Positions 2-56,108 of a DNA stretch of 56,108 bases are shown one piece after another. Below the pieces are notes generated by a model that saw only the letters and a program-made list of their open reading frames with translations, did not search any database and was not told where the DNA came from. Source of the DNA: a virus (Duplodnaviria > Caudoviricetes); the IMG/VR virus record IMGVR_UViG_3300031565_000040, positions 1-56,108 of that record. The stretch is one strand, 5' to 3'. The position numbers and the translations under genes are program-made. Each line of letters starts with the position of its first letter. The stretch's first letter is position 1.

Positions 2-763
2 TATGTCAAAATGGTGCGCCCGATTTTCAAATGGGCGATACGCCAGGGCTGGATTGCAAGCGATCCGTTCGAGGGAGTTCGGAAGTTCCGCGTACCTCAG
101 GAACGGATTCACGTTTACAAGCCATGTCAAATCGAAGCCATGCTTGCGGTGTCCAACGATATTTGGCAGGCAAGAATTTTGGCTGCGGTAACGGCAGGCG
201 CGAGACGTTCGGAAGTCTTGAATCTGACCCTCGATGATATTAACTTCGACGATTGCGAAATAGCAATCCAGCCGAAACGCGACACCGCAGAGACTTGGGA
301 ATACTGGCCGAAGAATAAAAAGTATCGGATAGTACCATTAGTCCCGATGTTTTATAATCTGATAGTCAGTAAGATAATTCCCTCTCTAAAAGGACAGCAG
401 TATCTAACTCTCTCGGAGAAACGTCACTGGACATTGCAGCGGCAAAGACCGTTAAATTACAGAAGAAGAATCAATCCAGATGAGAATTTCAACAAACCGT
501 TTAAGCGAATCATTGAAAGAGCAAACACATTACTTCCTTCTTTAGACAGAATAAGTCTTAACAGGACATTTCACGACCTGAGACGGACCTGTATTACCCA
601 CTGGACCCAGAATCCGAAACTGTCACCGCAGGAAGTACAATTGCTCGCCGGACACGCCGATATTAAGACGACAATGGAGTACTATGCAGCCGTCCGCGAC
701 GACGTGTGCCGACGAGCACAAACATCAATCGGGGCGGCCGGGAATGATCCGGCGACCTCTTGA
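2..763 (+). CDS. int: Tyrosine integrase, 5'-truncated by the window edge
   Basis: ARRSE, FHDLRR, LAGHAD, TMEYY catalytic motifs; near-identical to the 3' part of 53152-54111. Confidence 0.93.
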   Translation, partial: YVKMVRPIFKWAIRQGWIASDPFEGVRKFRVPQERIHVYKPCQIEAMLAVSNDIWQARILAAVTAGARRSEVLNLTLDDINFDDCEIAIQPKRDTAETWEYWPKNKKYRIVPLVPMFYNLIVSKIIPSLKGQQYLTLSEKRHWTLQRQRPLNYRRRINPDENFNKPFKRIIERANTLLPSLDRISLNRTFHDLRRTCITHWTQNPKLSPQEVQLLAGHADIKTTMEYYAAVRDDVCRRAQTSIGAAGNDPATS

Positions 764-1110: not shown

Positions 1111-1193
1111 TTTAAGCTTATCACAACCTCCTCCGCGAAAGGGGTCAGGGATGACTCTGGCCCCAATCGTTATTAAAGAAAGGAACATTAGAA

Positions 1194-1535
1194 ATGGAAA
1201 AAAGCGTATTGGAAAAACGAATTATAGAAAAAGCCAAAAATCGTTTTGACCAGGATGTTGAGAGTGCACGTGAAGTCTTAGCAAAACATCCTATACTTAA
1301 TGCTCTTTGGATTCATATCAAAGATAATGTCAAATTGAAACTTTGCGCAGTACACGGCTATTGTCCAGCAACGGACTTATTCACATACTCCCATGATAGA
1401 AAACTACTTTGCGAGAATACAAACTTCTATGAAATCAAGAGCAAATTGATGGAAAAGTACATCGAAGAGGAAACCGACAAAATCCTTAATCAACTTTCTA
1501 TTCTTCAGGATTATATAATCAATGAAAGTGAATAG
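1194..1535 (+). CDS. Hypothetical protein (cassette gene, absent from copy 2)
   Basis: AAGGA RBS; bracketed by cassette motifs at 1141-1183 and 1535-1563. Confidence 0.75.
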   Translation: MEKSVLEKRIIEKAKNRFDQDVESAREVLAKHPILNALWIHIKDNVKLKLCAVHGYCPATDLFTYSHDRKLLCENTNFYEIKSKLMEKYIEEETDKILNQLSILQDYIINESE

Positions 1536-1624
1536 AGAGAATCCGCCGAAAGGCGGCTCACGAAGAAGCCGGATAATGACCGTTTGAAAAGTTAATATTG
1601 GGCAGTGGCGAAGGTGGGAAGTTA

Positions 1625-1849
1625 ATGAGCAAGAAAACAAGATATATAGACATAAATGATGGTGATGGAATATGTGCAAAATCAGACCAGAGTTTCTATT
1701 TAACATGCTGTGATTGTGCTTTGACTCACCATATTAAGGTCATCATTGTCAAGAATGAAGTAATGATGATGATAACAAGAGATAAACGCAGAACAGCACA
1801 GAAAAGGCGAAGAATTAAAGAAGTGACAGCAGCCGATTTTAAGGAATAA
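1625..1849 (+). CDS. Small hypothetical protein with CCDC..H motif
   Basis: ORF with ATG at 1625 after a GGGA-type RBS. Confidence 0.6.
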   Translation: MSKKTRYIDINDGDGICAKSDQSFYLTCCDCALTHHIKVIIVKNEVMMMITRDKRRTAQKRRRIKEVTAADFKE

Positions 1850-2035
1850 GAAAATGAAAACATGCAAAGTATGTGTGCATTACAGTAAATATGAGGGGGA
1901 TATGTTAAACAAATCAAATCGTGGCGAAAAAATGATAATGTACTGCCGAAAACATGAAGTGCATTACGATAATACAATAAGTTGCTCCGGTTTTGAAGAA
2001 GAACCAATAAAAATAGAAATAACACCAGAGTGAAT

Positions 2036-2145
2036 AAACCGGCTTCGGGGCGTTGCCAAAGTCAAGGCAAGGGAGGTCAGACTTAAATTAACACTTTTTT
2101 GAGCATTAAAATAGGAAACTGCAATCAGGATGCCCGAAGCCTTTT
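2036..2145 (+). ncRNA. Conserved structured RNA element, also at 55535-55645
   Basis: Closing stem GGCTTCGGG/CCCGAAGCC, retained as a G-U pair in copy 2 (CCCGGAGCC); inner TTGCC/GGCAA hairpin. Confidence 0.5.
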
Positions 2146-2282
2146 TGGAGATAGATTATGAACTATTACGAGGACAAATTCAGGAGTCGATTTGAGATGG
2201 TCGAGTGTTGGTGCTGGCTCTTCAAGTGGACGGCAATAGCCATGTTTTTTATATGGCTCGGAACGAAGATTGGAGGTTAATC

Positions 2283-2675
2283 ATGCCGGAAGAAAAGAAA
2301 TCAATTTATGAATTGAAGTTGCACGAAGAACTGTCACTTAATAAATGGCTGTGTGTATTTAGAGTTCCAGGTGGATGGATATACCAAACCTCTGACCCTC
2401 GATATGAATGGGACAATATGGCCGTTTTCGTCCCTTTCAGCAACCAATTTTATCGAGAAGAAATGAAGAGGGTACTAACTGAATACTTATCACTTGAAGC
2501 ATTAAGCGCGAGGCTGAACTTGCCACAGAATTATCTGAGGGTATTGACCGATAGCAGCGCAATTCCATCCTTAGATGTCAATGGACGTCTCAGATTCAGT
2601 GAGCCGGATGTCAGAGATGCTCTTTCAGTTCTTGCGCTCAAACCGAAGCACAATCACGATGAAAGGAAGTTATGA
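2283..2675 (+). CDS. Protein with C-terminal excisionase-like (HTH_17/MerR-type) DNA-binding domain
   Basis: GGAGG RBS before ATG 2283; YLSLEALSARLNLPQNYLR...IPSLDVNGRLRF resembles Xis-type winged helix. Confidence 0.65.
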   Translation: MPEEKKSIYELKLHEELSLNKWLCVFRVPGGWIYQTSDPRYEWDNMAVFVPFSNQFYREEMKRVLTEYLSLEALSARLNLPQNYLRVLTDSSAIPSLDVNGRLRFSEPDVRDALSVLALKPKHNHDERKL

Positions 2676-2762
2676 AATGCTAAACCTAAAATCACCCACG
2701 AAATTAGACCAAATAGCCGAGGCGGAGAAAGAAGGTTAATCATCGACAGATGGGGGCCATCA

Positions 2763-3029
2763 ATGGATTGTGTAATATGCGGCCAAGCAAGGAGTGCCAT
2801 ACAGATGCGTCATTGTAACGACTGCGAAAAAGATATGTGCAACCAATGTATAGATGACCATGACTGTCACAATATAGACGATTTCATCGAGAGACTGAAC
2901 GAACCTTTAGCAGTATGTTTGGCCAATTTTGGCTATTATTTCGCCGGCGAATCCGAGAAAGACGGCCAAAGGATATTTGAGTTTCGTTCTTCTGAAGCTC
3001 CAAGAATGGAAGTGAGAATTGATATTTAG
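2763..3029 (+). CDS. Zn-finger hypothetical protein
   Basis: Three CxxC pairs plus HxC. Confidence 0.65.
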   Translation: MDCVICGQARSAIQMRHCNDCEKDMCNQCIDDHDCHNIDDFIERLNEPLAVCLANFGYYFAGESEKDGQRIFEFRSSEAPRMEVRIDI

Positions 3030-3185
3030 AGGACAAGCAATGACAGATAATAGATGCAATTACAAAGTATGGACTGGTAGTTATATAAATCCACAGCGCA
3101 GATGTTCACGCAAAAACGGACATGGCAATAAAGGTTTATATTGTAAGCAACATGCAAAGATAATGAAAAAGCGAAAGGATAAGCA

Positions 3186-4025
3186 ATGACAGATAACGCC
3201 AATTTAATACAAGGTTCTCCCGAATGGCATGAAGCCAGGATGGGGAAGATAACTGGAACGGGATTTCATAAAGTCTTATCAAAGAAAGGCAATACCCGCA
3301 AACACTATATGAGAGAGCTAATCCTTGAAAGAAAGACTGGCATATCAACAGAGTCTTTCACTAACGCCGAAATGGAGTGGGGAACACAAAATGAACCTAT
3401 GGCACGGGAATATTATGAGAAGGTCAATTATGGCCGTGTCAAGATTAAGCAAGTGGGATTTATCAATTACCAACCTGAGTCTCAAGCTGAACGAGTAGAG
3501 TTTGCCGAGTATGTAGGTGTTTCTCCAGACGGTTTGGTTGAAACCTTAGAGGCAGATGATGGAGTTATCGAAATCAAATGCCCGAATACCAGTACGCATC
3601 TTGGATATATGGCTTCACGTATTTTGCCTTCAAAGTACAAATCTCAAGTGCAGGGAATACTCTGGGTAACTAAAAGAAAATGGTGTGACTTTATCAGCTT
3701 TGACCCCCGTGTTGAGAAACAGCCTTTTTGTTGTATTAACGTCAAACGAGATGAGGAATATATCAACAATCTCAAGCAAGAAGTATCCAAATTCATAGAT
3801 GAGATGGTAAAAATGCAGAATGAAATAAAAGACGTTGACCCTCAACTTTTGATAGATGTTACGGGTGGGTGTTCTGAGGAGGAATGGTTAGAATCAAGAC
3901 AAATGGAGATTCGGGGCAAAGTCCGTCATGGTGTGGTCTGTGCAATAATTTCAACAGGAAATTTTGAGGATTTGAATAAAGATTTTATCAACAAGTGGGT
4001 CGATTTCATAGTGACGGGAGAATGA
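3186..4025 (+). CDS. YqaJ / lambda-exonuclease family protein
   Basis: QGSPEWHEARMGKITGT, WGTQNEP, SPDGL, EIKCP, Y..QVQ, WCDFISFDPR. Confidence 0.92.
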   Translation: MTDNANLIQGSPEWHEARMGKITGTGFHKVLSKKGNTRKHYMRELILERKTGISTESFTNAEMEWGTQNEPMAREYYEKVNYGRVKIKQVGFINYQPESQAERVEFAEYVGVSPDGLVETLEADDGVIEIKCPNTSTHLGYMASRILPSKYKSQVQGILWVTKRKWCDFISFDPRVEKQPFCCINVKRDEEYINNLKQEVSKFIDEMVKMQNEIKDVDPQLLIDVTGGCSEEEWLESRQMEIRGKVRHGVVCAIISTGNFEDLNKDFINKWVDFIVTGE

Positions 4026-4294
4026 CAATGGAAATAGTCAGAAATCAAACATTATATAAATGTTCTTATTGCAACCGTCGCAAACTAACAAAACGTGGCT
4101 GTATCCAACATGAAAACAATTATTGTTCATCACCGAATTCTCCACACAAAATTAGGATGGAAAAAGAACGAATCGAAAAACAAAGCAAATGCAAACATGC
4201 TCGGAAAGAAACCATTTATTCATACATCCCCGGCGAGTGCGTGAAACAGCCAGACCATGATTTGTGTATAGATTGCAATAAGATTTTAGGATGA
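4022..4294 (+). CDS. Cys/His-rich hypothetical protein
   Basis: Starts within the junction repeat; YKCSYC..HE..C and CIDC. Confidence 0.75.
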   Translation: MTMEIVRNQTLYKCSYCNRRKLTKRGCIQHENNYCSSPNSPHKIRMEKERIEKQSKCKHARKETIYSYIPGECVKQPDHDLCIDCNKILG

Positions 4295-4301
4295 CGGGAG
4301 A

Positions 4302-4682
4302 ATGACAATGAGCAAACATACTTGTGGTCAATGCGAATATTATATGAACAAAGAGTGTCCATTTTCAGATAGAACGGCATTATCTGAGGGATGTGGAAAA
4401 TTCAAATATACAAATCCAGAAGGTCGTATAGATTTCCTCCAAGCTGAGAACGAACACCTGAGTAATACGGTGGAATCTACACGCCAAGATTACGCAGACT
4501 TATTAGATGGAACTATGGAAGCCAAACTCCAAGCCGAGAACGCTTCCTTAAAAGAAATCGCTGACCTCGCTCTCAATATTCATACAAGAGACGGATTGTA
4601 TGTAAAAGAGAAGTGGGGTGTTATGGGCATAGATGCAGAGAAGCTTTTAGTCAGTAAGATTGAAGCACTGACGGGAGAATGA
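4302..4682 (+). CDS. Hypothetical protein (Cys motif plus coiled coil)
   Basis: Bounded by junction repeats; two LQAEN motifs. Confidence 0.75.
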   Translation: MTMSKHTCGQCEYYMNKECPFSDRTALSEGCGKFKYTNPEGRIDFLQAENEHLSNTVESTRQDYADLLDGTMEAKLQAENASLKEIADLALNIHTRDGLYVKEKWGVMGIDAEKLLVSKIEALTGE

Positions 4683-8473: not shown

Positions 8474-8930
8474 AATAGAAACTTTTGATATTGCAAGAAA
8501 AGCATATCCGAGCGTTAAGCGGGGTCTTAATACCGAGTTTGATTATTTCTGCAAGCACAAAGACTGGAAGCAAGCTCTACCGCTATTAAAACCAGCTATT
8601 GATGAACAAATAGAAAGGCGGAGGCTCGATGCCCAAGCTAATCGCTTTGTCCCCCCGTGGAAACACTTAAAGACTTGGCTATACAACCGATGCTGGGAAG
8701 AGACAGAGGGCGTGACAGAATCACCGGAAGAAAAGGCAGTCAAAGAGAAACAGGAACGGGAAAGAAAGAAACAAAAAGACAGAGATGATTTTCAAAGATA
8801 TTTAGAAAGCAAATCAACTCCCGCATTATTGGATATAAAAAAAGATGGTGGTTACTTACCAGGTCTTTGTGGCTGGCTTATAGATGAAATCCTGCAGAAT
8901 CGGCAGAGAAGGGAATTAGGAGTGAAATAA
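8451..8930 (+). CDS. Putative replication-initiator-related protein (C-terminal domain type)
   Basis: AYP..K and KHLKTWL..RCWEE resemble phage replisome-organiser C-domains. Confidence 0.45.
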   Translation: MKKPKTSEIETFDIARKAYPSVKRGLNTEFDYFCKHKDWKQALPLLKPAIDEQIERRRLDAQANRFVPPWKHLKTWLYNRCWEETEGVTESPEEKAVKEKQERERKKQKDRDDFQRYLESKSTPALLDIKKDGGYLPGLCGWLIDEILQNRQRRELGVK

Positions 8931-8932
8931 GA

Positions 8933-9442
8933 ATGTCAATCGTTTATGTTAAACCTGTTATTGAATTGTCAATGCGACAAATTTGCAAAAAGCCATATTT
9001 CAATCATAAACATGGCTGTCCTAATTATGGCAAAAGGCCAACCTGCCCTCCATTCGCACCTTTGGTATATGATTTTTTTGATATGTCGAAACCTATACTT
9101 GCTGTGTGGGTAGCGTTGGATTTGGAATTACACCGGGAAAAAATAAGAATTAAACATAAAGATTGGAGCAAACGTCAACTCGATTGCTGTTTGTATTGGC
9201 AGGGAACATTACTTAAAAGACTTCGCAGAGATGTAGAATACAATTTACATCGCCACTTATTCAATAATGCCGAACATTTAATCGTTACTTATGTACCAGA
9301 GGCAATGGGTGTTAATGTCACTGCTACTATGATGGAGGTTGGTGTGGTGTTGGAATGGCCACCCGAAAAAACAGTTATAAAAGTTGCTTTTATTGGTGTA
9401 AAGAAAATCAAAAATCGGCAGAGAAAGGAATTAGGAGTATAA
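8933..9442 (+). CDS. DUF2284-like metal-binding protein
   Basis: CPNYG..TCPP and PEAMGVNV..T; flanked by 26-bp repeats at 8898-8923 and 9413-9438. Confidence 0.75.
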   Translation: MSIVYVKPVIELSMRQICKKPYFNHKHGCPNYGKRPTCPPFAPLVYDFFDMSKPILAVWVALDLELHREKIRIKHKDWSKRQLDCCLYWQGTLLKRLRRDVEYNLHRHLFNNAEHLIVTYVPEAMGVNVTATMMEVGVVLEWPPEKTVIKVAFIGVKKIKNRQRKELGV

Positions 9443-12325: not shown

Positions 12326-12612
12326 AAAGACCAACAATCTTTGCCGGAAACACTTCTTTCAGGGTCAACGGCTTGCGTAGCTATTTCAGTTTTACTCCAA
12401 CCTTGTTCTTTCGCACAATATCGGCAGATAAGTTCATCTGCTTCTCCACAAAAATAAACATTGACGGCGACATATTTACACATTCTACGTGAACAGCTAT
12501 CACATTTATCAGTTTCTGGGCATTTTCTACAGTCAGCCAAACTTCTCCATCCAGAACAACCTTCATCTGGCATATCAAAATCGGGATTTCCTAAAATATC
12601 TGCTTTTTTCAT
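12322..12612 (-). CDS. Cys-rich hypothetical protein
   Basis: Multiple CxxC; coupled to the recombinase stop. Confidence 0.65.
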   Translation of the reverse strand: MKKADILGNPDFDMPDEGCSGWRSLADCRKCPETDKCDSCSRRMCKYVAVNVYFCGEADELICRYCAKEQGWSKTEIATQAVDPERSVSGKDCWSL

Positions 12613-13175
12613 TGGTAAAGCCCATTAAGTCCATCCTGCATATCCTCAAAGCTGACATCGGCGTACATATTGGCAGTAGTGGCTGGTGAAGCGTGACCTA
12701 ATTGCTTCTGGACTTGTCTTAGATTTCCGGTTTTCTTTAACAGGTGAACGGCTATTGTATGACGTGCTGAATGAATTGATAGCTCTTTCGGTAGGCCGGC
12801 CAGTCGAACCGACTTATACCATATCCTTTGCAGGCCCTGCGCGGTCAGTGGGCCTCTTTCTCCGATGAATAGAGAGCCAGAGTCTCGACTGCCGATAAAA
12901 CTCCTTAAATGGGCGGCAAACTCCACGCTGATAGCCAATATATCATCGCCGTCGCCGTTACGTTTCTTGAGTCGATGGATGTGGATTAAGGAACGGTCAA
13001 AATCTATATCTTCAATCTTAACAGAAGCAATCTCCGAGACCCTCAGACCTGTTAGCAAAGCAAAGTCAACCAGCATCCAAGCCAACACTCCCGTCTTTGT
13101 GGTCCGGGCTTTAGTTACTTCCCGCAGACGGCCTACTTCTTTACTATTCAGGTATTTGGTGCGGTCAATACTCAT
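12609..13175 (-). CDS. Second tyrosine recombinase, catalytic domain only (resolvase/invertase-like)
   Basis: TGLRVSE, LKKR, HSARH, LGHAS..T..Y; 188 aa. Confidence 0.9.
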   Translation of the reverse strand: MSIDRTKYLNSKEVGRLREVTKARTTKTGVLAWMLVDFALLTGLRVSEIASVKIEDIDFDRSLIHIHRLKKRNGDGDDILAISVEFAAHLRSFIGSRDSGSLFIGERGPLTAQGLQRIWYKSVRLAGLPKELSIHSARHTIAVHLLKKTGNLRQVQKQLGHASPATTANMYADVSFEDMQDGLNGLYQ

Positions 13176-19949: not shown

Positions 19950-20069
19950 ATGACACCATTTCAAGCTCTACTTTATGGACTGTTGTGTTTTACGGTAGGT
20001 TATTTATTTAGAGAATTTGAAAAATGGCTATTAAAAAAACCAGAAGAACCGAACGAGGTTAAGGAATGA
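19950..20069 (+). CDS. 39-aa single-TM protein
   Basis: MTPFQALLYGLLCFTVGYLFREF...EPNEVKE between junction motifs. Confidence 0.6.
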   Translation: MTPFQALLYGLLCFTVGYLFREFEKWLLKKPEEPNEVKE

Positions 20070-20557
20070 TAATTAAGACACTTATCAAAATATCTTTTGT
20101 TTTGTTTATCGCCTGCCTTTTATTTTGGTTAGTTTATTTCATTGGTTTGGATTCCGAGCCAAACGAACCGATGTTTACGAATTGTACGTTTACTGAGTCG
20201 AATGAGCCTATCAATGAAACATTTTTTGATACGAATGGTGTGTCAAGGTCGATAGAAGTTAAACACGGTGATCATGTCGATTTTATGACAAGCGGTACGT
20301 GGACTGGATGCTTAATTTTCGAGTATTCCACTGATGAAATAACGTGGATAATGGAAGAACATCCAATATTTCTGAGTTGCAATAATAGGAATTATCAATA
20401 CTCAGATTCTGCAAATGAAAGCAATTATGGAGAGGGTATGGCTCTCGGTTTTTATCGTTGGAACATGATTGCCATGTTAAGTGGTAGATGTAATTATAGT
20501 TGGAACAAACGAATAGGTTCTATGATTACTACCGATCCGAACGAGGTTAAGAAATGA
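20066..20557 (+). CDS. Membrane-anchored protein with beta-rich ectodomain
   Basis: N-terminal TM identical to that of the 20822 gene. Confidence 0.8.
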   Translation: MIIKTLIKISFVLFIACLLFWLVYFIGLDSEPNEPMFTNCTFTESNEPINETFFDTNGVSRSIEVKHGDHVDFMTSGTWTGCLIFEYSTDEITWIMEEHPIFLSCNNRNYQYSDSANESNYGEGMALGFYRWNMIAMLSGRCNYSWNKRIGSMITTDPNEVKK

Positions 20558-20832
20558 AGAAAGAACAAAAAGCGAGCTTATATATCTTATTTTACTTACT
20601 ATTCTTGGGATTATGGTTCTTCGGAGTTTACGACTATATTTGGGAAAAATACCAAATTCATCGACTAACACCAGATTTAAGAATAAATATCATCGGCCTT
20701 GATAAACCGGAACTTGATAAGAGATATTATCATTTCGTTACAGATTACACCGAAAGCGGATTGCCGTTAAAAGGCGGAGTTGGCTTTACTAAGGAAGAAT
20801 ATGATGCTACGAGGTTAAGGAATGATAATTAA
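20554..20832 (+). CDS. Membrane-anchored hypothetical protein
   Basis: N-terminal TM helix. Confidence 0.7.
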   Translation: MKKEQKASLYILFYLLFLGLWFFGVYDYIWEKYQIHRLTPDLRINIIGLDKPELDKRYYHFVTDYTESGLPLKGGVGFTKEEYDATRLRNDN

Positions 20833-21364
20833 GACACTTATCAAAATATCTTTTGTTTTGTTTATCGCCTGCCTTTTATTTTGGTTAGTTTATTTCATTG
20901 GTTTGGATTCCGAGCCAAACGAACCGAACGAAACAAAGATTCATGGCAAGCCCGGTTGGTATGGCGAACCAAATCTTAGCCAAGACATGAGATTTAATTG
21001 TTATTGTGGCCAAAAAGTATGGATAAATTCTATGTGTATTTATCCTATTGATCGCGATTACCCCCTAAATTCTGAACCATATTTATATAAATGTCCTAAA
21101 TGTGGACGGATTTGGATATTAAACAAAAGCATGATCTGGTGGTTGGACACAACTTCGCCAGGTCTATTGAACAGAGCGAGAACGGACGAAAATTTGAAAA
21201 AAGCATTATTGATAGTCAATCCTAACATTAAGTGTTTTCACGAATTGCTCGAAACAGATTATAGTGTGACACCGGGGGAAAATAAGTGTATTAAATGTGG
21301 TAAAGTTTACAGTGATGGCGATGGAAGGTTACTACGTGTCGACCCGAACAAGGTTAAGGAATGA
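20822..21364 (+). CDS. Membrane-anchored Cys-rich protein
   Basis: Same first 35 aa as the 20066 gene; CxC and CxxC motifs. Confidence 0.8.
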   Translation: MIIKTLIKISFVLFIACLLFWLVYFIGLDSEPNEPNETKIHGKPGWYGEPNLSQDMRFNCYCGQKVWINSMCIYPIDRDYPLNSEPYLYKCPKCGRIWILNKSMIWWLDTTSPGLLNRARTDENLKKALLIVNPNIKCFHELLETDYSVTPGENKCIKCGKVYSDGDGRLLRVDPNKVKE

Positions 21365-53151: not shown

Positions 53152-54111
53152 ATGAGACTAAGCACGAATAATCTCGTCTCGGAGTACATGCAGACTGCCG
53201 AGTCAATGGATTTGGCGGAATCGACGAGAGAGGCAAAAGTTAGGTTGTTTGAGGAGATAGAAAGATTGTTTGAATACGTTGACGAATTTGATGTAAACAA
53301 GTATCAGCTTTATCTTCTTAAAACCCGAAAGAAAGTGTCGGTAAACAGTTATGTCAAAATGGTGCGCCCGATTTACAAATGGGCGATACGCCAGGGCTGG
53401 ATTGCAAGCGATCCGTTCGAGGGAGTTCGGAAGTTCCGCGTACCCCTGGAGCGGATTCACGTTTACAAGCCATGTCAAATCGAAGCCATGCTTGCGGTGT
53501 CCAACGATATTTGGCAGGCAAGAATTTTGGCTGCGGTAACGGCAGGCGCGAGACGTTCGGAAGTCTTGAATCTGACCCTCGATGATATTAACTTCGACGA
53601 TTGCGAAATAGCAATCCAGCCGAAACGCGACACCGCAGAGACTTGGGAATACTGGCCGAAGAATAAAAAGTATCGGATAGTACCATTAGTCCCGATGTTT
53701 TATAATCTGATAGTCAGTAAGATAATTCCCTCTCTAAAAGGACAGCAGTATCTAACTCTCTCGGAGAAACGTCACTGGACATTGCAGCGGCAAAGACCGT
53801 TAAATTACAGAAGAAGAATCAATCCAGATGAGAATTTCAACAAACCGTTTAAGCGAATCATTGAAAGAGCAAACACATTACTTCCTTCTTTAGACAGAAT
53901 AAGTCTTAACAGGACATTTCACGACCTGAGACGGACCTGTATTACCCACTGGACCCAGAATCCGAAACTGTCACCGCAGGAAGTACAATTGCTCGCCGGA
54001 CACGCCGATATTAAGACGACAATGGAGTACTATGCAGCCGTCCGCGACGACGTGTGCCGACGAGCACAAACATCAATCGGGGCGGCCGGGAATGATCCGG
54101 CGACCTCTTGA
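53152..54111 (+). CDS. int: Tyrosine integrase, full length
   Basis: GGAGG RBS before ATG 53152; core-binding domain plus R-HxxR-H-Y catalytic residues. Confidence 0.95.
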   Translation: MRLSTNNLVSEYMQTAESMDLAESTREAKVRLFEEIERLFEYVDEFDVNKYQLYLLKTRKKVSVNSYVKMVRPIYKWAIRQGWIASDPFEGVRKFRVPLERIHVYKPCQIEAMLAVSNDIWQARILAAVTAGARRSEVLNLTLDDINFDDCEIAIQPKRDTAETWEYWPKNKKYRIVPLVPMFYNLIVSKIIPSLKGQQYLTLSEKRHWTLQRQRPLNYRRRINPDENFNKPFKRIIERANTLLPSLDRISLNRTFHDLRRTCITHWTQNPKLSPQEVQLLAGHADIKTTMEYYAAVRDDVCRRAQTSIGAAGNDPATS

Positions 54112-54471
54112 CCCCCAGTCAAACGGTAGGGTCAAAAAGTAAAGTATAACGGTTCGACCAAGCTGTGACAAGCTTTTTTGAATGTGTCCGGCGGCGTGGT
54201 AGCGCCGGTGGCTTAGAGATATGAGATAATGCTTGAGGTTATCAGAAACTACTAATACTGATGCCAAAAAAGGCAGAGACGTAGCAGGCTGGGGAATCCT
54301 GCCCGGACACAGCAAATAACCCGCTTCGAGCTTTCCTTAAAATCTCCTCGGCTCAGGCGGATTATCTCAGGGATGGGCCGAAGAACACGGATGTCATCGG
54401 CGGAGTACAATTTCTGACTATATAAAGACCCTCTTTGACTTTCACTTCGGCCCCCCTTTTTAAGCTTATCA
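53349..54471 (+). repeat. Long direct repeat, copy 2; patchy homology to 2036-2454 resumes at about 55535-56108
   Basis: Direct sequence comparison at offset 53,348. Confidence 0.95.
54077..54125 (-). other. attP core copy 2 (tRNA-Pro GGG 3' half)
   Basis: Identical to 729-777. Confidence 0.85.
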
Positions 54472-54484
54472 TCACCCTCCTCCG

Positions 54485-54516
54485 AAGCCAGATTCTGTTT
54501 TTTTAGAATCTGGCTT
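54485..54516. terminator. Strong hairpin unique to copy 2
   Basis: AAGCCAGATTCT / AGAATCTGGCTT inverted repeat. Confidence 0.5.
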
Positions 54517-54582
54517 TATTGAGAACACACTCGGTCGGGGCACTCTTGGCCCCAATCGTTTTATTAAAGAAAGGGACAAGAC

Positions 54583-54822
54583 ATGATACATACAAAAGTA
54601 TTTGCCACAGAAGATGAAATTAAAGATTTGCGGGCATTAGCATGTCAAGGGTGGATGCCTGGGGACGTAATGATGGTTACTTCTGTTATGCAAGGAATAA
54701 CAAAAGACCAAAAAACGGTTGATGCACGAAAGATTTGCCACAATTTAGCTCTTTCACACGGATTAAAAGAAATTGAGGGCTATTATGGTATTACCGAAGA
54801 AGGTGAATTTGTAAATTTTTGA
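54583..54822 (+). CDS. Hypothetical protein (cassette gene, absent from copy 1)
   Basis: Bracketed by the same motifs as 1194-1535. Confidence 0.75.
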   Translation: MIHTKVFATEDEIKDLRALACQGWMPGDVMMVTSVMQGITKDQKTVDARKICHNLALSHGLKEIEGYYGITEEGEFVNF

Positions 54823-54926
54823 CAACTTAAGAGACTCCGCCGAAAAGCGGTTCACGATACTAATTTTATTTGAAAGGGGTTGACTGAAGCGCGAATAGGT
54901 CAACCCCGTTATTGAAAGGAATTAAA

Positions 54927-55100
54927 ATGAAGTTACCAAAGAAAATCTATGTGAAAAAAGAAAAAGATGGCGATGAGGAATTTCTTATTGCAGGAGAAAA
55001 AGCCAGTGAAATCGCAGACCAAGAAGACGTAACAAAAGCAGGAGAATATATTCTCAAGCGAGAAGTCAATCTTGTTAATGCAACCGAGGTACATCCTTGA
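54927..55100 (+). CDS. Hypothetical protein (cassette gene, absent from copy 1)
   Basis: AAGGA RBS; followed by GAGAGAATCCGCCGAAAGGCGGCTCACGA. Confidence 0.7.
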   Translation: MKLPKKIYVKKEKDGDEEFLIAGEKASEIADQEDVTKAGEYILKREVNLVNATEVHP

Positions 55101-55280
55101 GAGAGAATCCGCCGAAAGGCGGCTCACGATAGTCGATCCGAACGCCGGGGTAGAGTAAACGCGCGTTAGACCATACGGGTTCAAAGATCAAGGCGTGACT
55201 TGCCGGTGGAGAGTAACCGGCTTTGATGGGGTCATGGATGACTCTTGGCCCCAATCGTTATTAAAGAAAGGGACGTGAAA

Positions 55281-55511
55281 ATGAAGAAGAAAATCTTTTT
55301 GAATAGCGAAGAAAAAAAACTTTTAGAGTCTGAAATAACAAATGAACAGACAGGTCTAACTTTGATGACACAAGGGGCAAAGTTTTATAACGAAGCCGAA
55401 GAAAAGCTTCAGGCAATGGTTAAAGAAAAGTGGCCCACGGCAACAAAACTGCATCATCCACTAAAAGGCAAATGGTCAGTAATTATTGAGGATGCCGATT
55501 TGACAACTTAA
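55281..55511 (+). CDS. Hypothetical protein (cassette gene, absent from copy 1)
   Basis: Bracketed by both cassette motifs. Confidence 0.75.
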   Translation: MKKKIFLNSEEKKLLESEITNEQTGLTLMTQGAKFYNEAEEKLQAMVKEKWPTATKLHHPLKGKWSVIIEDADLTT

Positions 55512-55936
55512 GAGAGAATCCGCCGAAAGGCGATAACCGGCTTCGGGGCGTTGCCAAAGTCAAGGCAAGGGAGGCTAAACTAAATTAACACCTTTTTGAG
55601 CGTTAAATTAGGAAACTGCAATATAGGATGCCCGGAGCCGTTTTGGAGATAGAAATGATAACTTTAGCATTAGGAATATCAATATATTTGTGGCTTAAAG
55701 TCACCCCAACCCTTGAAATATTAGAAGCAGGTAGTGCTATTCTTATAGCTATGTTATTTGATTTTATAATAGCGATTACAGCGTGCATTTGTTTTTCATA
55801 AGGAAAAGGAGATGAACTATTATCGAGACAAATTTATAGAGAATGTTGAGATGGTTGATTGTATGTGGTGGCTCTGCAAATGGACGGCAATAGCCATGTT
55901 TTTTATATGGCTCGGAACGAAGATTGGAGGTTAATC

Positions 55937-56108
55937 ATGCCCGAAGAAAAGAAATCAATTTATCAGTTAAAGCTGCACGAAGAACTGTCACTTAGTAAAT
56001 GGATGTGTGTATTGAGAGTTCCAGGTGGATGGATATACCAAACCTCTGACCCTCGATATGAATGGGACAATATGGCCGTTTTCGTCCCTTTCAGCAACCA
56101 ATTTTATC
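55937..56108 (+). CDS. Allele of gene 2283-2675, 3'-truncated by the window edge
   Basis: MPEEKKSIYQLKLHEELSLSKWMCV vs MPEEKKSIYELKLHEELSLNKWLCV. Confidence 0.8.
   Translation, partial: MPEEKKSIYQLKLHEELSLSKWMCVLRVPGGWIYQTSDPRYEWDNMAVFVPFSNQFY

Follow-up and report, generated by a model that had tools for sequence, protein, structure and literature searches.

The 56,108-base virus record IMGVR_UViG_3300031565_000040, analysed here in its full length and referred to as the window, belongs to an uncultured, temperate, podovirus-like soil phage of approximately 53.3 kb. Immediately downstream of its tyrosine integrase gene (int), small genes lying between an upstream element (U, a hairpin followed by a ribosome-binding leader) and a downstream element (D, a short hairpin with a GAAA loop) differ from one close relative to the next. 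We assign a probability of roughly two in three to the reading that these cassettes are shuffled by homology-driven recombination at the conserved intergenic motifs, in the manner of the promoter early stem-loops (PeSLs) of T4-type phages but without a recognisable promoter, and that no dedicated site-specific recombinase is needed. According to this model, the slot that follows int and a tRNA-Pro-type phage attachment site (attP) would be hyperplastic, its small accessory genes being separated by U and D modules. Because the modules are repeated in direct orientation and are common to co-infecting relatives, they would act as homology patches at which general or phage-encoded homologous recombination, which we infer to be the activity working on the motifs, could cause intervening genes to be lost, gained, replaced or put in a new order. 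Occasional illegitimate events at the level of microhomology would add further rearrangements.

Motifs and genes of the cassette slot

The record is classed as linear with an estimated completeness of 100%, but self-comparison revealed that it runs 2.7 kb past its own start, with an imperfect end overlap and a period of 53,348 bases. Positions 1–1135 (copy 1) and 53349–54484 (copy 2) are 99.47% identical, and the stretches downstream of them are unrelated; the earlier sequence-only reading of this DNA, which had described unrelated genes between the same motifs after about 1.1 kb of near identity, was therefore correct on this point. Homology returns at 2037/55535 (90.8%) and 2158/55812 (92.0%), and in the right-hand overlap of the record ends 2037–2454 corresponds to 55535–56108. 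Moreover, the metagenome contig L008, which stems from another assembly, passes from the copy-2 state into homologues of window positions 2158–4326. The end overlap and this continuation together indicate that the genome is circular, or circularly permuted in the assembly. Judged from these sequence relationships, copies 1 and 2 are not two loci but haplotypes of a single locus, drawn from a mixed population; the assembly went once round a genome of about 53.3 kb and then 2.7 kb further through the second haplotype. The former notion of "two states" within a single genome has to be replaced accordingly, as the record overlaps itself and the copies are best described as alleles. A tandem double lysogen is an unlikely physical source of this record, and it would leave the interpretation as two states of one locus in place. 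For virus catalogues, the case calls for caution, since the label "linear, 100% complete" may be attached to a circle that was assembled past its start and has unlike ends owing to strain variation.

All elements and genes of the slot described in the following are located on the plus strand. In copy 1, U (1141–1193) comprises a 10-bp hairpin (GGGG...CCCC), the leader AATCGTTATTAAAGAAAGG and a start codon, and is preceded by a remnant of D, CCGCGAAAGG, to which it is fused at GAAAGG. The open reading frame (ORF) that follows, ORF113 (1194–1535), is a cassette gene that ends at D (1535–1563), a CCGCC-GAAA-GGCGG hairpin; 30 nt at this site (1534–1563) are identical to 55100–55129 in copy 2. Further downstream, ORF74 (1625–1849) and the Cys-rich ORF59 (1854–2033) have neither U nor D between them, and no repeat separates ORF59 from the right-hand intergenic element R (2037–2155), the right border of the motif-flanked cassettes. 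Copy 2 contains three cassettes in this interval. U no. 1 (54530–54582; a 5-bp hairpin GGGGC...GCCCC plus leader) precedes ORF79 (54583–54822), which is followed by a D variant with a 16-base upstream extension (54819–54858); a fourth U-type element, U2 (54876–54926), precedes ORF57 (54927–55100) and D no. 2 (55101–55129); and U no. 3 (55228–55280) precedes ORF76 (55281–55511), where a truncated D no. 3 (55500–55533) is fused to R (55535–55653). The 10-bp hairpin of U2 differs in sequence from those of the other U elements, but its GGGG...CCCC closure and its leader GTTATTGAAAGG are the same.

The 25-mer core of U occurs exactly at 1159 and 55247, with no match in shuffled sequences, and a variant with a 2-base insertion is found at 54542–54578. 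Allowing up to three mismatches, the D 20-mer has four sites (1537, 54831, 55103 and 55514) and no further copy elsewhere in the 56 kb, compared with a shuffle mean of 0.01 and none of 100 shuffles reaching four. Both motifs thus lie far above shuffle expectation, and the motif and ORF coordinates given in the sequence-only reading were accurate, as was its description of single small genes, each with an upstream hairpin and ribosome-binding site and a downstream GAAA-loop hairpin, that are swapped between variants. The 16-base upstream extension of D, TTGACAACTTAAGAGA, holds the stop codon of the preceding gene at three of the five distinct D sites present in the window and in the metagenome contig L009 (54819, 55500 and position 1522 of L009). 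It is read in two frames (TTT TGA versus TTG ACA ACT TAA) and must therefore be conserved at the nucleotide and not the protein level.

The R element (119 nt) has a closing stem of 9–10 bp (GGCTTCGGG/CCCGRAGCC), an inner hairpin (GTTGCC...GGCAAG) and a subsequent T-run. The leading 39 nt are invariant among the five sequences scanned, and both ends are conserved while the middle differs in L009; within the closing stem, the sole change observed is A/G on one side, and base pairing is preserved. For the conserved early genes, R might act as leader or terminator. No Rfam family reached the gathering threshold anywhere in the window, R included. Predicted RNA folds were stable for U of copy 1 (1125–1196; −23.7 kcal/mol, z −2.98), for U no. 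1 together with the adjacent hairpin T described below (−36.3, z −4.49) and for D plus U2 (−27.5, z −2.66), and isolated D hairpins fold weakly (−8 to −12). In a simple scan for terminator-like structures, the U hairpins passed on the plus strand and the D hairpin on the minus strand only. We infer that U and D serve as transcript punctuation, that is, as attenuator or terminator, 3'-end hairpin and ribosome entry site. A look-up of RNA sequencing runs found none that contains this stretch.

Co-existing haplotypes and their junctions

A scan of metagenomes with a D 21-mer retrieved four loci (L007–L010), three of which (L007–L009) are related to the window. The fourth, L010, was dropped as a chance match inside an unrelated ORF, presumably encoding a GIY-YIG-like nuclease. 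L007 (1117 nt) matches 55150–56108 at 95%. L008 is 100% identical to copy 2 across 1254 nt (53873–55126), spanning two cassettes, and lacks the following 136 bp (55127–55262), in which the spacer and the U no. 3 hairpin are located. L009 begins with the left flank, ORF70 enclosed in a 17-base direct repeat, the T hairpin, U and ORF76, and continues with a truncated D fused to U, ORF58, a D+U2 block, ORF67, R and genes absent from copy 1. Here, ORF58 and ORF67 are new genes, ORF70 is an extra gene placed before the first motif-flanked cassette, and ORF76, the third cassette of copy 2 and also present in L007 and L008, has become the first motif-flanked one. In copy 2, the D+U2 block (106 nt, 95% identity) lies between ORF79 and ORF57; in L009, a different pair of genes surrounds it. 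The T hairpin (14 bp; 54484–54516) is absent from copy 1, and the 17-base sequence that flanks ORF70 in L009 is found in copy 2 at 54464–54480. Fixed gene content among relatives, which would have spoken against the swapping proposed by the sequence-only reading, was thus not observed, as L008, L009 and the two copies all differ.

The mosaic extends rightward beyond R, with replacements in L008 up to about 4.3 kb of the window. One difference concerns the gene of the YqaJ/lambda-exonuclease family at 3186–4025, identified by PHROG and Pfam scans: its counterpart in L008 (2731–3222) has, instead of the YqaJ exonuclease domain, an N-terminal domain of unrelated sequence, and the last ~35 residues alone are in common (..KVRHG...IVTGE). 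This difference is a domain swap within a gene of the hyperplastic region.

Additional evidence came from Logan contigs of four soil runs (X1–X4), for which depth is a single rough figure per contig. In three runs, a contig of 1315–1325 nt joins 54471 to 55246 via 34 copy-1-specific bases. The join of 55129 to 55535 has the same depth as this left join, namely 28 (X1), 43.6 (X2) and 36.9 (X4), and from this equality both joins are taken to lie on the one 1315–1325-nt contig. The copy-2-specific piece with ORF79 has depths of 4.4, 14.3 and 8.8 in X1, X2 and X4, and those of the integrase flank (40, 51.9 and 42.9, respectively) are roughly the sum of both states. In X3, the copy-2 pieces are richer, at 44.3 to 163 compared with 151 for the flank. 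These figures show a co-existence of the states at unequal depth, and they support alleles rather than paralogues. Three more low-depth joints in X3, which connect U no. 1 to a D or to R, may represent additional cassettes.

It could be argued that stable lineages, each without internal shuffling, were wrongly joined at shared repeats by the assemblers. A mixed population did give rise to the over-run assembly of this record, repeats of 25–30 nt are typical sites of chimeric joins, and the Logan contigs indeed end at the motifs, at 54548 in all four runs and near 54834–54888, 55126–55153, 55258–55292 and 55498–55545, because a de Bruijn graph breaks wherever one sequence has several neighbours. 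The same end points also count in favour of exchange at the motifs. We nevertheless regard such an artefact as highly improbable. The perfect identity of L008 with copy 2 over 1254 nt and two cassettes was obtained in another assembly, three runs yielded the Logan contig with the copy-1-specific left join, which the D-to-R join of equal depth fits, and the Logan assembler works with 31-letter words, longer than the exact runs of 25 and 30 nt that the motifs of copy 1 have in common with those of copy 2. Furthermore, the same gene, ORF76, occurs in different neighbourhoods, and past exchange at the motifs is therefore required even if the present lineages are stable.

The ends of the homology blocks avoid the interiors of genes. 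In all pairwise comparisons of the four haplotypes, block ends lying at least 12 nt inside an ORF amounted to 0 of 15 for copy 1, 1 of 33 for copy 2, 1 of 24 for L008 and 1 of 27 for L009, and such deep coding sequence makes up 54–74% of each variable segment; block ends are not independent events, and these counts are descriptive and given without a P-value. The earlier expectation that breakpoints coincide with the motifs was thereby substantiated. At the level of single bases, the first U of L009 is a chimera of U no. 1 (left part) and U no. 3 (right part) of copy 2, the switch falling within the shared TTGGCCCCAATCGTT. A crossover between two U elements that deleted ORF79 and ORF57 would leave just such a product, with the exchange inside 15 shared bases. 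Fusions of D and U at the shared GAAAGG are found in L009, in copy 1, where the D remnant precedes the U hairpin, and in one contig of X3; copy 2, L007 and L008 have a D/R fusion. The 136-bp deletion in L008 joins ...GGCTCA to AAGAAAGG with approximately one shared base. The joints thus differ in position, lying within TTGGCCCCAATCGTT, at GAAAGG, at CTCA|AAGA or in the D/R fusion.

Such varied positions and truncated fusions are compatible with template switching, and copy-choice is the main rival of homology-driven shuffling, although an improbable one in our estimation. Here, the hairpins would stall the replication fork and the nascent strand would switch to another copy of U or D in the same or in a co-infecting genome; cassettes and motifs would be unchanged in this account, with a different enzymology. 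Every exchange point lies at or beside a stable hairpin, and several joints require 1–6 shared bases or are truncated motif fusions, both typical of slippage or template switching. Ordinary homologous recombination, however, explains the U × U chimera and the 106-nt D+U2 block equally well.

Several observations weigh against homology-driven shuffling. The identical stretches of U and D are short (15–30 nt), at the low end for homologous recombination, and several junctions have almost no homology. Family scans recognised no single-strand annealing protein in the window and L008 lacks the exonuclease domain, so that the phage's own recombination system may not be the agent. Exchanges of U with U and of D with D cannot by themselves be told from site-specific events. 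No sigma-70-like promoter was detected in U, U2 or D, with the reservation that the promoter consensus of the host may differ, and promoter-like hits were not enriched in the two regions examined (7 versus 5.4 and 9 versus 7.0 expected). Finally, the independent haplotypes number no more than four and stem from a few related soil data sets, and the Logan depths are rough. Other searches did not add to this number. Exact scans of IMG/VR, in a set that may leave out records very near the window, found no locus for a D 20-mer, a U 25-mer, an R 33-mer or a T 26-mer; a U 27-mer with up to three mismatches was absent from all 401 order-level genomes searched; and a protein-based locus search with ORF130 gave one weak partial match (L005) and no haplotype.

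Integrase, cassette cargo and the remaining genome

The complete integrase (53152–54111, plus strand; 319 aa from ATG) matches PF00589 with 58.3 bits (cut-off 27.1) and phrog_1 with an E-value of 6e-37. Its 3' part recurs at the copy-1 end, cut by the window start (2–763, plus strand; 99.5% identical to 53349–54111). Overlapping the int stop codon, a candidate attP core resembling the 3' part of tRNA-Pro(GGG) is located on the minus strand at 727–777, with its second reading at 54075–54125; positions 727–774 are 85% identical over 48 nt to the tRNA-Pro(GGG) (L019) of the metagenome-assembled genome (MAG) G001, which also holds the related integrase described below. ARAGORN predicted no tRNA in the window. 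By its sequence, the enzyme is an ordinary phage integrase with a tRNA-Pro-type attP at the end of its gene, and the cassette row would therefore sit just inside one end of the prophage.

A search of genomes with the integrase retrieved seven loci. The closest, L011 and L012 (88% amino acid identity; L013–L017, 26–52%), are identical and represent the same phage-like 62-kb contig, binned into two MAGs titled Sedimentisphaerales; in IMG/VR, the search found one distant match only (L006). In L011, a complete tRNA-Pro(GGG) (8928–9002) overlaps the 3' end of int, a tRNA-Met (9363–9437) follows 360 nt further on, and the two tRNAs are followed by a YqaJ-like gene and by what we take, from its sequence, to be a RecT-like gene. 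At both the DNA and the protein level, int alone is common to L011 and the window, and L011 contains neither U nor D; more distant genomes therefore cannot test the shuffling model. The sharing of int alone is itself an instance of module exchange. Sedimentisphaerales, an order of Planctomycetota, probably also includes the bacterial host of the phage described here.

A second tyrosine recombinase (12612–13175, minus strand) is encoded within a minus-strand block of small genes. It has 188 aa, consists of the catalytic domain only (PF00589, 103.9 bits) and may function in dimer resolution, inversion or otherwise. With two such recombinases in the genome and the array adjoining int, an integron-like site-specific system might be envisaged, in which one of these enzymes recognises U or D and excises and inserts single-gene circles. 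D is a short palindrome, and a D-to-U back-joint observed once in X3, at a depth of 5.6, could be a circle junction. We consider this very unlikely. Both enzymes fail the integron-integrase model (NCBIfam TIGR02249; cut-off 265 bits) with 23.1 bits for the integrase and 64.8 bits for the 188-aa protein, the former has its own tRNA-Pro-type attP, the arms of D measure only 5 bp, the same kind of D-to-U join is linear in L009, and a search for inverted repeats around the second recombinase gave nothing convincing. The varied joint positions and the truncated motifs left behind likewise argue against a site-specific system. The integron analogy drawn from sequence alone is consequently not upheld, since the integrase points towards the array, carries a tRNA-Pro-like attP at its 3' end and falls far short of the integron-integrase cut-off, and neither is the idea of site-specific exchange, given junctions at different motif positions and the fusions that remain. 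We give equally little credence to a broader variant, in which U and D would be recognition elements of a dedicated phage cassette platform. The hairpins would then be the target of the 188-aa recombinase, or else of a nuclease or annealing protein encoded in the variable early region, and this phage protein would excise genes as circles and re-insert them at any U or D site, also in co-infecting phages. If true, such a platform would be a functional counterpart of integrons that evolved independently in Planctomycetota phages.

None of the nine cassette ORFs exceeded the curated Pfam cut-offs, and the six in the window neither exceeded those of NCBIfam nor matched PHROGs at E ≤ 0.01; ORF74 and ORF59 have no family match. 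A similarity of ORF59 to the N-terminus of ORF156 of L009 was too weak (E 0.03) and was dropped. Each exact cassette protein sequence occurs in at most six contigs of a 15-billion-protein collection. ORF113 belongs to a widespread, uncharacterised family of small proteins, with 102 representative clusters that match at E ≤ 1e-3, 27 of them at E ≤ 1e-10, and a length of about 105–115 aa throughout, and its fold is predicted with confidence (AlphaFold model from 71 sequences; predicted local distance difference test score, pLDDT, 95.4). Compared with BFVD, this model matched only one uncharacterised phage protein (template modelling score 0.71, E 7e-3). Foldseek found no match in the PDB, and VIA-align returned generic helical matches only, the best of which (Z 6.8) is below the stated noise level for helical models. 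The protein atlas held no usable match for ORF113 or ORF79. In three IMG/VR contigs (L023–L025), homologues of ORF113 lie among small early-type genes without U or D. From position only, our guess is that the cassettes have early accessory or host-interaction functions.

A small conserved ORF of 36–37 aa is encoded divergently on the minus strand, in the interval that separates attP from the cassettes. In copy 2, ORF37 (54362–54475) has a strong Shine–Dalgarno (SD) sequence, GGAGGAGGG, and the copy-1 counterpart lies at 1014–1127, its start being approximate. The protein (MMISLKRGAEVKVKEGLYIV...) is identical in copy 2 and L009 (585–698), has no family match, and its gene is followed by a terminator-like hairpin. 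On the minus strand, the T element reads as a hairpin followed by GGAGGAGGG and a start codon. T and the 17-base repeat (54463–54522; 55–60 nt) are 93–94% identical to an intergenic element in two (L021, L022) of 151 genomes from the order to which the MAG with the related integrase belongs; in both, the element lies upstream of a panB-like gene. T looks like a host-derived fragment and is a further indication of the host. Depths in the bin 54466–54602 reached 370–806x across the four soil runs, compared with 40–150x in its flanks, with diverse continuations at 54459 and 54517. An explanation by many extra cassette contexts was rejected once T had been found in bacterial genomes, and the depth most simply derives from bacterial genomes that carry the element.

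Early genes to the right of R are linked by a fixed junction, G(G/A)AGGTTAATCAT, found at ~2268–2285, at 2722–2740 and at further gene ends up to ~5.1 kb. It places the SD sequence in the last codons of one gene, followed by TAA, TC and the start codon of the next, and many early proteins therefore end in ..KEG or ..TGE. Deletions that distinguish L008 from the window are bounded by these junctions.

Nearly all genes of the record are on the plus strand, and the G+C content rises from 38–44% in the first 10 kb to ~48% in the virion genes. PHROG and Pfam scans identified the small (15811) and large (17984) terminases, the major head protein (25748), two large tail proteins (37341 and 39928) and internal virion proteins (42780 and 44739). 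A 591-aa protein (21891) matching the PHROG family "head-tail adaptor" is, by its size and position, probably the portal. Between the large terminase and this putative portal gene, a perfect direct repeat of 119 nt (20053–20171 and 20809–20927) covers the beginnings of two genes (20066–20557 and 20822–21364) whose first 35 residues, hydrophobic and signal-like, are identical and whose remaining parts are unrelated. These may be true paralogues or two population variants assembled in series.

Comparison with known systems

Morons, also mentioned in PMC3029335, are found in temperate phages. Each is a gene that brings its own promoter and terminator to a site between conserved neighbours. The cassettes resemble morons in that single accessory genes are present or absent between variants, at a prophage end by the attachment site and with hairpins at their borders. 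In contrast, no promoter was recognised here, and the flanking elements are common to all cassettes instead of individual.

Integrons consist of the integrase IntI, the recombination site attI and promoterless cassettes bounded by attC sites, imperfect palindromes of 57–141 nt with paired core sites; the integrase gene is divergent from the cassette row, with attI and the promoter Pc between them. The phage slot shares with them a one-orientation row of small genes beside a tyrosine recombinase, each gene being followed by a hairpin-forming repeat. However, the integrase is not of the IntI type, is encoded on the same strand as the row and serves integration at a tRNA-Pro-like attP. Unlike the attI/Pc layout, the region between int and the cassettes is occupied by this attP and the small minus-strand ORF. 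D, with its 5-bp stem and 4-nt GAAA loop, is not an attC site, and the joints are imprecise.

Temperate lambdoid phages have short conserved boundary sequences at their module junctions (as cited in PMC3029335), and the Rad52-like recombinases of phages generate mosaics with relaxed fidelity where homology is short and diverged (De Paepe et al., 2014; PMC3945230). The mode of action proposed above for U and D follows the boundary-sequence idea and fits such low-fidelity recombination. The phage described here is likewise temperate, with mosaic joints at short conserved intergenic sequences, and the window haplotype contains a lambda-exonuclease-family gene (3186–4025). In contrast to the lambdoid boundary sequences, U and D are repeated in tandem order within one genome and would also drive intragenomic deletion and reordering, and family scans recognised no annealing protein.

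The closest parallel is provided by the PeSLs of T4-type phages, whose exchange is considered to be homologous (Arbiol et al., 2010, PMC2839356; Comeau et al., 2014, PMC4122927) and whose hairpins are described as often polyG and then polyC, between a stop codon and an SD sequence (PMC2839356). Cassette swapping at repeats is already known from T4-like phages and differs from that of an integron. In both cases, repeated intergenic modules lie between the stop codon of a small ORFan and the next SD sequence and start codon in a hyperplastic region, the hairpin is often polyG...polyC, and the modules delimit the indels and replacements that distinguish close relatives. In our data, U and D are likewise positioned between stop and SD or start beside ORFans, occur only in this slot, and bound the indels and replacements among close relatives. 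PeSL stem-loops are described as acting as terminators or attenuators; hairpins are present here too, and those of U passed the terminator-like scan, for which a similar activity may be considered. PeSLs are also described as giving mini-circles by exchange between neighbouring motifs; a candidate here would be the single D-to-U back-joint of X3, a kind of join that is linear in L009. There are also differences: a sigma-70-like early promoter is given as a PeSL feature in these accounts and none was found in U or D, so that the elements are not PeSLs in the strict sense; two modules, 5' and 3' of each gene, replace the one composite module described there; and there are 3–4 cassettes per haplotype compared with the ~50 motifs quoted per T4-type genome. 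Moreover, the present phage is temperate and podovirus-like, and its slot abuts attP.

The idea of conserved regulatory linkers as recombination scaffolds hence reaches a small temperate phage, probably of Planctomycetota, and a promoter need not be part of such a linker. To our knowledge, very few phages of Planctomycetota have been described. Single soil samples already show the raw material of phage mosaicism, that is, alternative gene sets at different frequencies with exchange points resolved to the base, and U, D and R can be used as baits for the accessory-gene pool of this phage group in metagenomes.

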